IMG/VR virus record: IMGVR_UViG_2563366985_000003
Reading direction: 5' to 3' (one strand)
DNA from: a virus
Taxonomy: Duplodnaviria > Heunggongvirae > Uroviricota > Caudoviricetes
DNA: 48,122 nt
Each line of letters starts with the position of its first letter. Positions within the stretch are counted from its first letter, which is position 1. The notes beneath the pieces are model-generated. The model saw nothing but the letters and a program-made list of their open reading frames with translations. It was not told the origin of the DNA and ran no database searches. Made by a program: the position numbers and the translations under genes. This document shows positions 36,050 to 46,483 of the stretch, in pieces.

Positions 36050-36182
36050 CAGAATCCTTCCGGATAATTAACTCTCCCCTTTAAGGGACCATCCCTCTTA
36101 TCCCTGCGCGCTACTTAAGTATTTTTGATTCTATTCCGGCACCGTCCAGAACTTCAAACGCGTTGAAAATAAAAACAAAAAC

Positions 36183-36208
36183 CCGCCGAAGCGGGTTAAG
36201 TGCGGGTG
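36183..36208 (-). terminator. Intrinsic terminator downstream of hokD
   Basis: AACCCGC-ttcg-GCGGGTT hairpin followed by TTTTTGTTTTT on the minus-strand transcript. Confidence 0.5.
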
Positions 36209-36265
36209 CGTTGAGGATGCCTGTCACATCAGAGGTGGCGAGGGATTTCTCCCTCGCCGGGTCTC

Positions 36266-36421
36266 TTACTCCTCAGGTTCGTAAGCTGTGAAGACAGCGA
36301 CCTCCGTCTGGCCGGTTCGGATTCGTACCTCGCAGAGGTCTTTCCTCGTTACCAGTGCCGTCACTATGACGGTTAAACAGATGACGATCAGGGCGATTAA
36401 CATCGCCTTTTGCTGCTTCAT
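36266..36421 (-). CDS. hokD: Hok-family type I toxin
   Basis: 51 aa MKQQKAMLIALIVICLTVIVTALVTRKDLCEVRIRTGQTEVAVFTAYEPEE. Confidence 0.9.
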   Translation of the reverse strand: MKQQKAMLIALIVICLTVIVTALVTRKDLCEVRIRTGQTEVAVFTAYEPEE

Positions 36422-36611
36422 AGCCTGCTTCTCCTTGCCTTTCGGCACGTAAGAGGCTAACCTACATGTGTCTAGCATGAAATTGGCCTCAGATTAATGT
36501 TAAGCGTCTTGCAGGACGCGTAATGTTAACTGGGGCTTTTCTCTATCTGCCTTTGGTGTTCGTGCCCGAGGCAGATAGCCTCAAGCACCCGCCGTGATTC
36601 TACAAAAACAT
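36422..36611 (-). promoter_or_regulatory. hok mRNA leader (5' tac-like stem-loop, mok-start region; putative antisense sok on opposite strand)
   Basis: Transcript 5' end GCGGGUGCUUGAGGCUAUCUGCCUC... resembles remembered plasmid R1 hok mRNA 5' end; TAGAAT -10 just upstream. Confidence 0.55.
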
Positions 36612-36828
36612 TACCCACCTTTCCAGCAATTCACAACAACTCCATGCAAATAGTAAGTAGAATAATAAGTTATTAGTATTAGCAATTTACTTAGTTTCTA
36701 ATTTGTGCCAATGATTTTCATTTTTGCATGAAAAATACCTTAACATTTTATATTTACTTACTATTTGTAAGCCCCATCAGTTCTTTCTGATGGCGGCTGG
36801 TATTTCAGTTCCAGATATAGTATATGCT

Positions 36829-37857
36829 TTACGCCTTAATAGGGTTAATCACATTTCCGCTATCCGTACCATAGTATTTTTTTGTAGTCATGCCTTGTTT
36901 ATAATAATCATTTAACAGTTTGAGAAAGTTTCTTCCTTGCCTCTCATCTTCTATGACTAATTTACCATGCTCATTGGTCTTAAACTCTTCGTTCTGAAAC
37001 ATTTTTAGCACATCATTCATAGCTTGAACATCATTCTTTTCCAGAGCCGTATGGTTACCTTTCTCAGCGATATGAGTGAGAATTTTTCTCAGTGATGGCT
37101 TATGAAGAATAGCTTGTTCAATAACATCTAAACCTTCAATAAGATCAAGTTCTTTAATTGTATTTAATGTTTTTTGTGCAGCTTCTGTAAACTCAACCTC
37201 CAAGCCTACAATAGCCTCAAAACTTTTCTTATGAAATACATAAAATTGATCTTTTATATAAATACAATCGATTTTGTCATCAAAATTGACTGCGCTGCCA
37301 TCAAATGATCTTAACTCTTTATCTGTTTTATCAAACAAAGCGAATACGCGCTGAGTCATATTTTGTGGTTCATTTGTTGTGACTTTCCCCCTGCTGATTT
37401 TTCGGAAAGAATAAGTGACGTCAGCCCCCTTTTGGACTTTAATACAATAGGCCCACAAATCATTCTGAACCTCAGCAAGAGAGGTAAGTACAACTGGTTT
37501 ATCATTCTTTATATCGTTATTAATAACTTTTGAAAACGATATCGCGTTATTCATAGCATAGGCATAAATCTTATTATCAATATCATCATCAATAACAGTA
37601 TACTTTTTCATCACAATATCATCTTTCGAAGCATGAGAAATAATCTGGTTTGATAAAGTATACTTAAAAAATTTAGCAATATCTGGAGCGATTGGAGCTT
37701 TAATGATTTTAAAATCGAATTTATCAACAACTCTTGCGGTTCTACTCATACCCGCTTTAAGATGTCTAGTAATGAAATACAACGATATTTTCGCCGCATC
37801 ATCATCCTTAAGTTGCTCAGCATACTCTAATAATTCTTCAAGCTTTAACATTTTCAT
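36829..37857 (-). CDS. Candidate defence-module partner protein (342 aa, soluble, no recognisable catalytic motif; KwaB-like size)
   Basis: AT-rich ORF overlapping the upstream membrane-protein gene by 4 bp; function inferred from context only. Confidence 0.6.
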   Translation of the reverse strand: MKMLKLEELLEYAEQLKDDDAAKISLYFITRHLKAGMSRTARVVDKFDFKIIKAPIAPDIAKFFKYTLSNQIISHASKDDIVMKKYTVIDDDIDNKIYAYAMNNAISFSKVINNDIKNDKPVVLTSLAEVQNDLWAYCIKVQKGADVTYSFRKISRGKVTTNEPQNMTQRVFALFDKTDKELRSFDGSAVNFDDKIDCIYIKDQFYVFHKKSFEAIVGLEVEFTEAAQKTLNTIKELDLIEGLDVIEQAILHKPSLRKILTHIAEKGNHTALEKNDVQAMNDVLKMFQNEEFKTNEHGKLVIEDERQGRNFLKLLNDYYKQGMTTKKYYGTDSGNVINPIKA

Positions 37858-38468
37858 TCCTTATGGGATTCAGCATAAAAAAGTTTTGGGCCCACGTCCT
37901 CAACATCAAGAAGATCATCTTCCTCCAAATACTTTGATTTAGTCAAAACCATACCAGTGCGTTTTTTGTCGCTTTCTAAATCCAAATATGTAACTTGATA
38001 TAAAGTATAATTAATACTTATCGTAGGATTTATAAGTATCATGCTTGAATTAATATATATTAAAGCCGTTACCGTTAACAATATTGCTATAGGTATAACA
38101 TTAGTTAAAGTGGATAGATCCTGAAATACAAACGGAATTATATATGTAAAAAGATAGCTTATTGATTCATTGTTTTTATTTTCAATATCTATAACTCTTA
38201 CAGTTCTACCACTAGTGGCGCATCGACGTTTTATATTTTTTAAAAAAATTGTTAATCCTACAATACCAAATAATGATAATACACCAATGACACTGACCGC
38301 GCCAAAGTATTTAAAGAAAATAGTTAATGATTCAACACTTATACCTTTCCAATTTAAATAGCTTCTATAAGTATACAATTGCACAAAACACATGATAAAG
38401 AATAGGGGAAGGTATGACACTATAAATAGCGAAACTCTAGCACCTAAATGTAGTTTATTTACTCTCAT
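37854..38468 (-). CDS. Candidate defence-module membrane protein (204 aa, four predicted TM helices, acidic C-terminal tail; KwaA-like architecture)
   Basis: Four hydrophobic segments (approx. 12-31, 55-76, 103-115, 123-146); AT-rich; first gene of two-gene operon. Confidence 0.6.
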   Translation of the reverse strand: MRVNKLHLGARVSLFIVSYLPLFFIMCFVQLYTYRSYLNWKGISVESLTIFFKYFGAVSVIGVLSLFGIVGLTIFLKNIKRRCATSGRTVRVIDIENKNNESISYLFTYIIPFVFQDLSTLTNVIPIAILLTVTALIYINSSMILINPTISINYTLYQVTYLDLESDKKRTGMVLTKSKYLEEDDLLDVEDVGPKLFYAESHKE

Positions 38469-38608
38469 AACTACCCCACAGCCTACACGTCTAGTATTTT
38501 ATGTTATTTCGAATAATTATGCATCAGATTACAATCCTACAATTGTGCATAAAACGAGCATTTTGCTGATTTTTCTGCGGATGCCTGAGACAGACAACCT
38601 CAAGCACC

Positions 38609-38644
38609 CGCAGCAATTTTACTTAACTCCCGCTACCTCGCCAA
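38609..38644 (-). promoter_or_regulatory. Putative sigma70 promoter and hok-like transcript start driving the two-gene module
   Basis: -35 TTGGCG, 17-bp spacer, -10 TAAAAT, then GCGGGTGCTTGAGG (second copy of hok mRNA 5'-end sequence). Confidence 0.4.
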
Positions 38645-38676: not shown

Positions 38677-39363
38677 TCACTCCTTCTCTTCTTTATCGTA
38701 GTGGAGTTGACCAATTTTGATAAGAGGGCGTCCCTGAGATTTGCGGTGTAGATTGGTATCGCGCAGAGAATACACACAGCCACAATATTCCTGCTGATAG
38801 AATTTTTCGCGCTTGCTGATTTCAATCATGCGGGACGAGCCGCCCTGCTTGCGCCAGTTATAATCCCAGTACACCATGCCCGGATAATGCGCGACGGCTC
38901 GCCGCCCACAGTCGTTAACCTGCTGCATATTTTTCCAGCGTGAAATGCCCAGTGAACTGCTGATCACACTGAAACCATTTTCAGCAGCGTACAGCGCTGT
39001 CCGCTCAAAACGCATGTCAAAACACATGGTACAACGGATCCCCCTCTCGGGCTCCCATTCCATTCCTTTGGCACGTTCAAACCAGTTGTCTGTGTCGTAA
39101 TCAGCATCAATAAATGGCACGCCGTGTTGTTCAGCAAAGCGAATATTCTCATCCTTACGAATTAAATACTCTTTCTGAGGATGAATGTTCGGGTTGTAGA
39201 AAAAGATGGTATAGTCGATTCCCGAGGCCTGAAGCGCCTCCATCACTTCACCGGAACATGGAGCACAGCAAGAGTGCAGTAGTAGTTTGTTTGCCCCGTT
39301 TGGGAGCTCCAATTTAGGCCGTTTGAAATCAGCAATAGTCATAAATATTTTTATTGGGGTCAT
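38677..39363 (-). CDS. queH: Epoxyqueuosine reductase QueH homologue (DUF208)
   Basis: 228 aa with hallmark motifs [21 protein letters not shown]-terminal YCGCVYS. Confidence 0.8.
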
Positions 39364-44011: not shown

Positions 44012-46483
44012 ATGAGTAAAGTCTTTATTTGCGCCGCTATTCCTGACGAACTGGCAACAAGGGAAGAAGGCGCTGTGGCTGTAGCCACAGCCATTGAAGC
44101 TGGCGACGAACGCCGTGCTCGAGCAAAATTTCACTGGCAGTTCCTGGAACATTATCCGGCTGCTCAGGACTGCGCTTATAAATTTATTGTCTGCGAGGAT
44201 AAACCTGGCATACCCCGCCCTGCCCTCGATTCATGGGATGCTGAATATATGCAGGAAAACCGCTGGGATGAGGAGTCTGCTTCTTTTGTCCCGGTTGAGA
44301 CTGAATCCGATCCGATGAACGTCACTTTTGACAAGCTGGCCCCTGAAGTACAGAACGCTGTCATGGTTAAGTTCGACACATGTGAAAACATCACCGTTGA
44401 TATGGTTATTAGCGCACAGGAATTGTTGCAGGAAGACATGGCAACATTCGACGGACATATCGTTGAAGCGTTGATGAAAATGCCAGAAGTTAACGCCATG
44501 TATCCGGAGCTTAAGTTGCACGCCATTGGGTGGGTTAAGCATAAATGTATTCCTGGTGCTAAATGGCCCGAAATTCAGGCAGAGATGCGCATCTGGAAAA
44601 AACGTCGCGAAGGTGAACGCAAGGAAACCGGAAAATACACGTCTGTTGTTGATCTCGCCCGCGCCAGAGCCAATCAACAGTACACTGAAAATTCAACAGG
44701 AAAAATCAGCCCGGTCATTGCTGCCATTCATCGCGAATACAAGCAGACATGGAAAACACTGGATGACGAACTGGCCTACGCTCTCTGGCCTGGTGATGTG
44801 GATGCCGGAAACATTGACGGCAGCATCCATCGCTGGGCAAAAAAAGAAGTTATCGACAACGACCGCGAAGACTGGAAGCGTATCTCGGCATCAATGCGCA
44901 AACAGCCTGATGCCCTTCGCTACGACCGCCAGACTATTTTTGGCCTTGTCCGTGAGCGTCCGATCGACATTCACAAAGATCCCATAGCACTGAACAAATA
45001 TATCTGCGAATACCTGACGACAAAGGGCGTGTTTGAGAATGAAGAAACAGACCTGGGCACTGTTGATGTTCTCCAGTCATCAGAAACACAAACTGATGCA
45101 GTGGAAACTGAGGTATCTGATATCCCAAAAAATGAAACCGCGCCGGAAGCTGAACCATCTGTAGAGCGTGAGGGGCCGTTCTATTTCCTCTTCGCAGATA
45201 AGGACGGAGAAAAATACGGTCGCGCAAACAAACTTTCTGGTCTGGATAAGGCACTGGCTGCTGGCGCCACTGAAATCACAAAAGAAGAATATTTTGCCCG
45301 AAAAAATGGCACATACACGGGCTTACCGCAAAATGTAGATACCGCTGAAGATTCAGAACAACCAGAGCTGATAAAAGTTACCGCTGACGAAGTAAACAAA
45401 ATTATGCAGGCAGCCAATATCAGCCAGCCTGACGCCGATAAGTTGCTTGCTGCATCACGTGGTGAATTTGTTGAAGGGATTAGTGACCCGAATGATCCGA
45501 AATGGGTTAAGGGGATCCAGACCCGCGATTCTGTGAACCAGAACCAGCATGAATCGGAACGGAACTACCAAAAAGCGGAACAAAACAGCACAAATGCGTT
45601 ACAAAACGAGCCAGAAACGAAACAGCCTGAACCAGTGGCGCAACAGGAAGTGGAAAAAGTCTGCACCGCCTGCGGTCAGACCGGCGGCGGCAACTGCCCT
45701 GATTGTGGCGCGGTGATGGGCGACGCAACATACCAAGAAACATTCGATGAAGAGTATCAGGTTGAAGTTCAGGAAGATGATCCGGAGGAAATGGAAGGCG
45801 CTGAACATCCACACAAGGAGAACACTGGCGGCAATCAGCATCACAATAGCGATAATGAAACTGGCGAGACGGCAGATCACTCAATTAAGGTGAACGGTCA
45901 TCACGAAATCACATCCACCAGCAGGACGTGTGACCATCTAATGATCGACCTTGAAACCATGGGAAAAAATCCTGATGCCCCGATCATCTCAATAGGTGCA
46001 ATATTTTTCGATCCGCAAACCGGAGATATGGGACCGGAATTTAGTAAGACTATCGATCTGGAAACTGCTGGCGGAGTCATTGATCGGGACACCATTAAAT
46101 GGTGGCTTAAGCAATCACGCGAAGCGCAATCTGCCATTATGACCGATGAAATCCCGTTAGATGATGCACTGTTACAATTGCGGGAATTTATCGACGAAAA
46201 CTCCGGTGAATTTTTTGTTCAGGTTTGGGGAAATGGAGCCAACTTCGACAACACGATTTTGCGCCGTTCATACGAACGGCAGGGGATCCCCTGCCCGTGG
46301 CGTTACTACAACGATCGCGATGTACGCACAATCGTTGAGCTGGGGAAAGCCATAGACTTCGATGCCAGAACGGCTATTCCATTCGAAGGTGAGCGCCATA
46401 ATGCACTTGATGACGCCCGTTACCAGGCAAAATACGTTTCAGTTATCTGGCAAAAACTGATCCCGAGTCAGGCTGATTCTTAA
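44012..46483 (+). CDS. Large early protein with C-terminal DEDDh (DnaQ-like) 3'-5' exonuclease domain (YdfE-like N-terminus)
   Basis: 823 aa; C-terminal Exo I (MIDLETMG), Exo II (GNGANFD), Exo III (HNALDDARYQAKY) motifs. Confidence 0.75.
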   Translation: MSKVFICAAIPDELATREEGAVAVATAIEAGDERRARAKFHWQFLEHYPAAQDCAYKFIVCEDKPGIPRPALDSWDAEYMQENRWDEESASFVPVETESDPMNVTFDKLAPEVQNAVMVKFDTCENITVDMVISAQELLQEDMATFDGHIVEALMKMPEVNAMYPELKLHAIGWVKHKCIPGAKWPEIQAEMRIWKKRREGERKETGKYTSVVDLARARANQQYTENSTGKISPVIAAIHREYKQTWKTLDDELAYALWPGDVDAGNIDGSIHRWAKKEVIDNDREDWKRISASMRKQPDALRYDRQTIFGLVRERPIDIHKDPIALNKYICEYLTTKGVFENEETDLGTVDVLQSSETQTDAVETEVSDIPKNETAPEAEPSVEREGPFYFLFADKDGEKYGRANKLSGLDKALAAGATEITKEEYFARKNGTYTGLPQNVDTAEDSEQPELIKVTADEVNKIMQAANISQPDADKLLAASRGEFVEGISDPNDPKWVKGIQTRDSVNQNQHESERNYQKAEQNSTNALQNEPETKQPEPVAQQEVEKVCTACGQTGGGNCPDCGAVMGDATYQETFDEEYQVEVQEDDPEEMEGAEHPHKENTGGNQHHNSDNETGETADHSIKVNGHHEITSTSRTCDHLMIDLETMGKNPDAPIISIGAIFFDPQTGDMGPEFSKTIDLETAGGVIDRDTIKWWLKQSREAQSAIMTDEIPLDDALLQLREFIDENSGEFFVQVWGNGANFDNTILRRSYERQGIPCPWRYYNDRDVRTIVELGKAIDFDARTAIPFEGERHNALDDARYQAKYVSVIWQKLIPSQADS

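Follow-up and report, generated by a model that had tools for sequence, protein, structure and literature searches.

Why does a two-gene operon in an Escherichia coli prophage lie between two copies of the beginning of a hok toxin mRNA? The question is raised by a 48,122-nt stretch of viral DNA (IMG/VR record IMGVR_UViG_2563366985_000003; "the window" hereafter means this whole stretch). In a Qin-like lambdoid prophage, positions 36184-38629 of the window probably constitute a composite hok/sok moron, inside which an operon of the Kiwa anti-phage system is nested. On the minus strand, a canonical hok promoter with the first 31 nt of the hok mRNA is followed by 1977 bp of foreign DNA, and then by a second promoter and a complete hok/mok/sok locus with its terminator. 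The window belongs to a Qin-like lambdoid prophage of E. coli, and a RefSeq locus of 99.9% identity has the gene order dicB, ydfA, Cro/CI regulator, YdaT, DUF977, QueH, Kiwa, hokD, rem, DUF968, Q, and lysis genes. I performed a computational analysis in which the Kiwa genes were identified by PADLOC profiles and hok by Pfam and Rfam (RF01794; gathering score 59). The cassette was counted in 5426 complete E. coli genomes, and the other collections searched were IMG/VR, metagenomes, phages, and plasmids. Copy number was compared among 133 loci, 120 of which came from an IMG/VR scan for a 14-mer shared by the two copies. The references for empty sites were strain S9 (L002) for the context with an upstream QueH gene and L018 for the DUF551-type context.

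Is the repeated motif truly the start of hok? The motif occurs as cagatagcctcaagcacccgc at 36572-36592 and as cagacaacctcaagcacccgc at 38591-38611, where the original prediction had placed it, and it extends to a direct repeat of 41 nt with 80% identity (36563-36603 and 38582-38622; spacing, 2019 nt), the copies differing at 8 of the 41 positions. Counted from the hok -10 box to residue +31 of the hok mRNA, the repeated segment is 42 nt long (36562-36603 and 38581-38622). With up to two mismatches, the 14-mer common to both copies, CCTCAAGCACCCGC, still has exactly two occurrences in the 48-kb window (0.30 expected; 4 of 100 shuffled sequences reach two). The minus-strand sequence of both copies is (G)TA[G/A]AAT-N5-GCGGGTGCTTGAGG. 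The -10-like hexamers, which had been noticed at equal spacing, do precede each copy (TAGAAT at 36597-36602 and TAAAAT at 38616-38621), with a -35-like hexamer 17 nt further upstream in either case. The consensus of RF01794 starts with GGGUGCUUGA, and the whole model matches the window at 36416-36590 (minus strand) with 115.7 bits, well above the gathering score. The motif is therefore the true 5′ end of the hok mRNA, as had been proposed from the sequence alone. Leader positions are numbered here from the G at 36592 (downstream copy) or 38611 (upstream copy); the Rfam model starts 2 nt further in, as the true start site probably does.

No significant similarity of the two copies was found further out in either direction. 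Upstream of the -10 box, the two promoters of the window show no significant similarity, and homology beyond this box was rejected. A second block of hok leader had been suspected at 38481-38494, resembling the region near the mok start (36461-36477). The alignment, 13 of 15 with an indel, is at chance level. When the kwaA 5′ untranslated region (UTR) was aligned with the hok leader beyond +33, the best local score was 10 against a shuffle mean of 8.9, and 28% and 36% of the shuffles reached it in two tests; the candidate mok-region remnant upstream of kwaA was dropped.

The downstream copy lies at the head of the following features.

36562-36603, minus strand: downstream copy of the repeat, from the -10 box TAGAAT (36597-36602) to +31 of the intact hok mRNA, with a private CACG at -5 to -2 (alignments).
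36597-36625, minus strand: promoter of the intact hok (TGGAAA, 17-nt spacer, TAGAAT; promoter scan); the sequence upstream of the -10 box is unrelated to the canonical hok promoter.
36416-36592, minus strand: complete hok mRNA leader with tac, ucb, the mok Shine-Dalgarno sequence, and the Sok target region (RF01794, 115.7 bits, full model 1-157).
36266-36478, minus strand: mok frame of 70 amino acids containing hok (36266-36421; 51 amino acids) (list of open reading frames (ORFs); PF01848, E 3e-23).
36180-36216, minus strand: hok 3′ end, with fbi (36202-36216, complementary to the 5′ tac) and an intrinsic terminator (36180-36197), forming the downstream edge of the mobile unit (terminator scan, fold, and the boundary in L144).

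By its homology and predicted fold, the downstream copy is the head of a complete hok/sok locus. The region 36180-36625 has a Hok/Gef ORF, a structured leader with the Sok target, the tac-fbi pairing, and the mok overlap. In the minimum free energy structure of the 417-nt full-length hok mRNA, the first bases pair with 36202-36216 (tac-fbi; z -9.3). The antisense Sok gave a weak plus-strand match to RF01794 only (16.8 bits). The hok ORF is annotated as HokD (WP_000813254.1) in identical RefSeq loci, and the intact hokD that had been predicted directly downstream is borne out by its Pfam match, full leader, fold-back, and terminator. The unit shares every hallmark tested with known hok/sok loci (hok/sok of plasmid R1, hokD of Qin, and hokW-sokW of Sp5), but it differs from them in its -35 region, which was seen nowhere else. 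Between the terminator and 36603 (-11), the identity of other hok alleles to the window reaches 99%, and beyond this point they are unrelated to it; the -35 region of the downstream promoter and the CACG variant were found only beside Kiwa.

Two observations concern this hok locus in its own right. At 36176-36257 (minus strand), over the 3′ stem-loops and terminator of hok, Rfam gives a match to isrK of 25.6 bits, below the gathering score of 50; a hairpin-plus-terminator architecture common to both, and not an isrK gene, is the probable cause. An ISNCY-family element disrupts the intact hok at its start codon in some Kiwa carriers. In L134 (816-4088), the insert is 3273 bp long and is flanked by two copies of the 16 bp at window 36420-36435. 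The homology of strain 405 and of L138 to the window likewise ends at 36420, and an ISNCY transposase pseudogene adjoins in strain 405 (locus L003, 1883-2905).

What, then, is the upstream copy? Its features and its neighbor are as follows.

38581-38622, minus strand: upstream copy of the repeat, from the -10 box to +31 (tac element and its local complement); intact hok alleles are homologous to it as far as 38581 (alignments).
38616-38644, minus strand: captured canonical hok promoter, the candidate promoter of kwaAB (-35 TTGGCG at 38639-38644, 17-nt spacer, -10 TAAAAT at 38616-38621; promoter scan).
38677-39363, minus strand: QueH (epoxyqueuosine reductase), the resident gene directly upstream of the hok promoter, in the flank outside the unit (PF02677, E 1.9e-65; RefSeq annotation of identical loci).

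Strain S9 has the start of the hok mRNA 67 nt past the stop codon of QueH. Over about 100 nt, from the QueH stop via a conserved stretch and the canonical promoter to +31, S9 and the upstream copy are collinear, and the promoter-to-+31 collinearity of this copy is seen with every other hok allele examined. The captured promoter itself is collinear with the hok promoters of the Kiwa-less alleles of the S9, E. coli B, AIPR, SMEK, and DUF551 types. After GGCAT, the collinearity gives way to the AT-rich CCGCAGAAAAATC, which belongs to the cassette only. Since the upstream copy is collinear with empty-site alleles to +31 and then breaks, it is the remnant of a hok locus truncated at +31, retaining the promoter and the 5′ metastable hairpin. 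Thus, the predicted position of the cassette in a truncated hok leader was confirmed. At 38581-38644, neither an Rfam match nor a Hok ORF was found, and the next ORFs are kwaA and kwaB. Compared with known hok/sok loci, this copy is cut at +31 and has a defence operon in place of mok/hok; it shares with known hok mRNAs the promoter and the tac/metastable hairpin. In about 890 E. coli genomes without Kiwa, the alignment to this region starts exactly at window 38581. The substitutions +15T and +17G are private to the upstream copy and were found only beside Kiwa.

The comparison with empty sites in related prophages, which had been suggested as a check, gave one 42-nt segment in each. Both copies of the window map to a single stretch of the S9 site (L002, 3392-3433), and the L018 site of the DUF551-type context likewise has a single segment (2408-2449). 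Alignment with these alleles and with reference hok loci revealed the collinearity of about 100 nt rather than a short chance match.

On the upstream side of hok, it was also observed that about 375 additional nucleotides separate the cargo from the hok promoter in E. coli B (L001, 3323-3960), L004, and L005. This stretch ends like the 3′ end of a small hydrophobic ORF (...VIVLMDHLSD*), and its last 20 nt or so alone survive beside QueH in S9 and in the window.

The two copies bracket a module with the following parts.

37854-38468, minus strand: kwaA, Kiwa membrane protein of 204 amino acids (PADLOC KwaA PDLC00212, E 1.3e-101, full length).
36829-37857, minus strand: kwaB, Kiwa DUF4868 protein of 342 amino acids, with a 4-nt overlap with kwaA (PADLOC KwaB PDLC00223, E 1.5e-159, full length; PF16162).
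38469-38580, minus strand: kwaA 5′ UTR of 112 nt, AT-rich, cassette-specific, and not derived from hok; it may hold a Kiwa promoter of its own (linkage in 156 genomes; composition).
36604-36828, minus strand: AT-rich spacer of 225 nt after kwaB, cassette-specific, supplying the -35 region of the downstream hok promoter (linkage to Kiwa).

By the family membership of its adjacent kwaA and kwaB genes, the bracketed module is a Kiwa anti-phage operon. It has the same two overlapping genes as the described Kiwa system (Doron 2018; PMC11785009), a 204-residue KwaA followed by a 342-residue DUF4868 KwaB, although the solved KwaB structures are only distant relatives of the subtype in the window (E 1.5e-5). 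In the published mechanism, KwaA and KwaB form a membrane supercomplex that senses phage attack and blocks phage replication, and Kiwa is frequent in prophages (PMC11785009). Kiwa presumably works here as published; its protective function is assumed from family membership and from that study. The claim that the motif exactly flanks the two genes held for the bracketing and failed for the exactness, the upstream copy ending 112 nt before the kwaA ATG and the downstream copy beginning 225 nt past the kwaB stop.

The DNA between the copies (36604-38580; 1977 bp) has a GC content of 0.24-0.39, against about 0.50 in the flanks. The cassette was found in 156 of the 5426 complete E. coli genomes, always at full length and with at least 99% identity (differences of about 0.4% at most), and it was absent from the phage and plasmid collections. 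Low GC content and this identity everywhere show a foreign cassette from a single recent acquisition. The kwaA UTR and the spacer after kwaB occur only with the cassette. A homology of the kwaA UTR to the Kiwa UTRs of Yersinia and Symbiopectobacterium, suggested by MAFFT alignment, was withdrawn (shuffle p 0.24-0.50). Since the similarity to distant Kiwa UTRs is not significant, this UTR is assigned to the cassette by linkage and composition only.

The spacer has some structure of its own. Within it, 36647-36659 and 36755-36767 form a perfect inverted repeat of 13 nt, the arms lying 95 nt apart, and the spacer folds better than its shuffles (z -3.4), with neither an Rfam match nor a minus-strand ORF of at least 25 amino acids. 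It could be a structured 3′ UTR, a small RNA, or a relic of the donor locus. Further Kiwa genes were met under unexpected labels. A contig binned as a Veillonella parvula metagenome-assembled genome (L007, JAGZPX010000007.1) carries an E. coli prophage segment whose KwaB is 100% identical to that of the window, and its taxonomic label is probably a binning error. A scaffold labelled Martelella alba (L008, NZ_SZPQ01000004.1) has an enterobacterial-type Kiwa with 86% amino acid identity beside an integrase, and this label is suspect. A 5′-truncated Kiwa precedes the same hok unit on contig Ga0209547_100293 (L143/L157, 128-1751), where homology runs from 37598 (inside kwaB) through hok to 35978.

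Is this arrangement confined to one prophage? Among the 156 E. coli carriers, 155 have the cassette in the QueH context. IMG/VR and assembly look-ups showed that other prophages, too, carry this cassette together with the truncated copy. In L135 and L142, the upstream genes are a small ORF and DUF551, and the early region is of the cI/cro/O/DnaC type. L150 and L151 have DnaT/lambda-P, DUF1627, Ead, and DUF551 upstream, and DUF1367, YbcO, and DUF1133 downstream. The sequence just upstream of the hok promoter is shared between these two groups, and the early and downstream genes seen differ; the groups may be related on the upstream side. The composite unit resides in at least two unrelated lambdoid backbones, and probably in three.

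The boundaries of homology are informative. In L135, in L142 with L144, and in L150/L151, homology to the window begins at 38629 (-18, inside the hok promoter). The unit ends downstream just past the hok terminator (36184 in L144) or at the start of rem (35978 in L150). The unit 36184-38629 acts as one movable module, the edges of which are the edges of the hok/sok locus. Because the upstream boundary always lies inside the hok promoter, the comparison supports exchange by recombination with resident hok loci. The unit would spread between prophages by homologous recombination, using the hok promoter-leader of about 50 nt as the upstream arm and the hok locus of about 430 nt, or genes beyond it, as the downstream arm. 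The predicted footprint of a cassette exchange at a toxin-antitoxin locus is supported by these boundaries and by the occurrence of the same bracket in at least two backbones. Prophage RecE/RecT was considered as the agent of short-homology exchange and was dropped, the candidate domain at 44012-46483 being of the DEDDh Rv2179c-like type and not RecE. This gene (plus strand) encodes an 823-residue "exonuclease" with a C-terminal DEDDh Rv2179c-like 3′-5′ exoribonuclease domain (E 2e-67); its first 640 residues or so have no Pfam match, and it lies between dicB/ydfD and xis/int.

Does hok bracket other cargo as well? The 31-nt hok leader start was matched by 95 of the 133 loci, and two copies were found in Kiwa loci only. 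Bracketing as a recurrent mechanism was therefore rejected, and the duplication looks like a single event. Hypervariable sequence precedes the hok promoter: among 79 loci, the 1.4 kb on its upstream side falls into 35 clusters, and the cargo there includes QueH, an AIPR abortive-infection protein, SMEK with a methyltransferase, DUF551, and the Paa adhesin. Each of these cargoes lies upstream of an intact hok promoter; Kiwa alone lies inside the transcription unit. Like other phage morons and prophage defence hotspots, such as those documented in P2/P4 (PMC9122126), the unit runs from promoter to terminator, has a deviant GC content, is present or absent among related prophages, and occupies a hypervariable position; a predicted promoter-like site is present, and the terminator is at the hok end. 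Unlike in those hotspots, the cargo here lies inside the transcription unit of the neighboring moron and would use its promoter, and moron sequences form the flanking repeats. As a separate observation, the segment from DUF977 to the hok promoter in Qin- and Rac-like prophages (L001-L006, L011, and L014-L133) looks like a defence/accessory hotspot bounded by hok/sok.

How would Kiwa, which has to be expressed in the lysogen, be transcribed at this position? Within about 200 nt upstream of kwaA, the hok promoter is the only consensus-like promoter on the right strand (9/12, with a 17-nt spacer). Since it is the sole such promoter near kwaA and none was found inside the UTR, kwaAB in lysogens would be transcribed, at least partly, from the captured constitutive hok promoter, and it is plausible that this promoter drives Kiwa. 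The transcript would then begin with a very stable hairpin.

38577-38611, minus strand: predicted 14-bp 5′ hairpin, with 10 pairs from the hok metastable hairpin and 4 from the first cassette bases CCGC (RNA fold, -22.4 kcal/mol; z -5.1).

The metastable, co-transcriptional 5′ (tac) hairpin of the hok mRNA is established (PMC9841398). The retained 31 nt comprise the tac element and the adjoining downstream sequence that pairs with it. The junction with the cassette DNA is at the 3′ foot of this hairpin, where CCGC happens to pair with the first four leader bases. Intact alleles are predicted to form an 11-bp local hairpin of -17 to -21 kcal/mol without the four basal pairs. The hairpin would probably protect the 5′ end of the kwaAB transcript. 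No intrinsic terminator was found between kwaB and hok by the terminator scan, so some transcripts would probably read into hok, and the intact hok/sok would stay a second, independent module.

A different account of the upstream hok fragment is possible, and I consider it rather unlikely: the fragment would be an inert scar, and kwaAB would be transcribed from its own promoter in the 112-nt UTR, with little or no contribution from the hok promoter. The UTR travels with the cassette, the Kiwa homologues in Yersinia, Symbiopectobacterium, and the contig labelled Martelella have no hok flank, -10-like hexamers are common in AT-rich DNA, and one natural variant, G7A (L007 and L136), breaks a pair of the hairpin and weakens it in the predicted fold. 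Against this account, the scan finds no minus-strand consensus-like site in 38469-38580 to rival the 9/12 score of the hok promoter. The -10 box TAAAAT of the QueH context is one step closer to the consensus than the TAGAAT of intact alleles, and the promoter is kept in every carrier examined, in both upstream contexts.

How did one hok start become two? The copies carry marks of different alleles: at +21 and +25, the upstream copy is S9-like and the downstream copy is B/AIPR-like. The sequence of natural hok promoters varies widely upstream of -12 and in the spacer from -5 to -1, and for this reason the downstream promoter looks like that of another natural hok lineage rather than random cassette DNA. 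In the origin that I propose, DNA carrying Kiwa, the spacer, and a second hok would have been joined to a resident hok, at one end by homology within hok and at the other illegitimately at the foot of the 5′ hairpin. The two copies would then have differed in allelic origin from the beginning. The arrangement resembles homology-facilitated illegitimate recombination, or Campbell-type integration that leaves direct repeats: the foreign DNA lies between direct copies of a segment present once in the empty site, with a long homology (hok) on one side and an abrupt junction on the other. It differs in that the repeats are 80% identical and the donor was not found, and the case is known from sequence alone.

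Alternatively, a one-step insertion into a single hok could have produced a long target-site duplication (-11 to +31), whose copies later diverged or were converted. The empty sites hold exactly one copy of the flanking segment, and the spacing of 2019 nt equals 1977 cassette nucleotides plus one 42-nt copy, as a duplication of this kind predicts. I nevertheless regard it as improbable, for the 8 differences in 41 positions stand against a divergence of at most about 0.4% in the cassette among 156 genomes, and these differences follow allele lineages (+21 and +25). Usual transposon target duplications are far shorter than 42 bp. The cassette has no terminal inverted repeats, transposase, or recombinase; in a comparison with transposons and insertion sequences, the repeats are 42 nt at 80% identity, and no inverted repeat linking the cassette ends and no transposase ORF were found. 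That the similarity is a short chance match or a convergent promoter-like sequence, with Kiwa merely beside hokD, has virtually no likelihood and is already refuted: the similarity of the copies spans only 41 nt and the second block is at chance level, but the collinearity with Kiwa-less alleles runs from the QueH stop to +31, the 14-mer exceeds its expected number, and both copies map to the same 42 nt of the empty sites.

The joining of two hok alleles around Kiwa, with subsequent exchange through hok and expression from the captured promoter, has several points against it. The promoter assignment is a consensus scan, and the region has 14 promoter-like sites against 9.5 expected. A weak Kiwa promoter in the AT-rich 112-nt UTR is possible, for example TAAAAT with a weak -35. 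The G7A variant argues against strong selection on the hairpin. Exchange is deduced from boundaries only, and whole-module mosaicism of hok morons would give the same boundaries. The donor lineage, which would carry TAGAATCACGG with the upstream sequence GGTGGGTAATGTTTTTG, was not found in E. coli genomes, IMG/VR, or metagenomes, in which the spacer, the cassette-linked promoter, CACG, and +15T/+17G never occurred without Kiwa. Because no Kiwa-less donor lineage was found, I infer the two-parent origin rather than observe it.

Kiwa in prophages, hok/sok in lambdoid prophages, and prophage defence hotspots have all been documented already, and RefSeq annotates KwaB and HokD at the window locus. 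Full-text literature searches found neither a hok-bracketed Kiwa, nor any mention of hok flanks of Kiwa, nor a hok promoter-leader reused for other genes. It seems that only the nesting of Kiwa in hok/sok is undescribed. The general significance is limited, because the components are known and the event is apparently unique.

Two wider ideas may be put forward tentatively. The conserved hok promoter-leader might be a general docking or exchange site for defence cargo in lambdoid prophages, which I think unlikely; if true, cargo inside the hok unit would inherit a lysogen-active promoter, a stabilizing 5′ hairpin, and hok homology arms on both sides, and would form a portable package. More speculatively, read-through transcripts from kwaAB into hok, or the extra tac copy, might couple Kiwa expression to Hok activation, with Hok-mediated death backing up Kiwa.

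The locus offers a sequence-resolved example of how a defence operon becomes an expressed, portable prophage gene. A resident toxin-antitoxin moron appears to lend Kiwa its promoter and 5′ end, and moron sequences appear to serve as recombination arms. If the hok promoter drives Kiwa, this would account for expression in lysogens independent of the lytic programme of the phage, and "native promoter" constructs of this Kiwa subtype would include hok sequences. In Qin- and Rac-like prophages, the DNA preceding hok is a rich cargo hotspot that may be mined for new defence genes.

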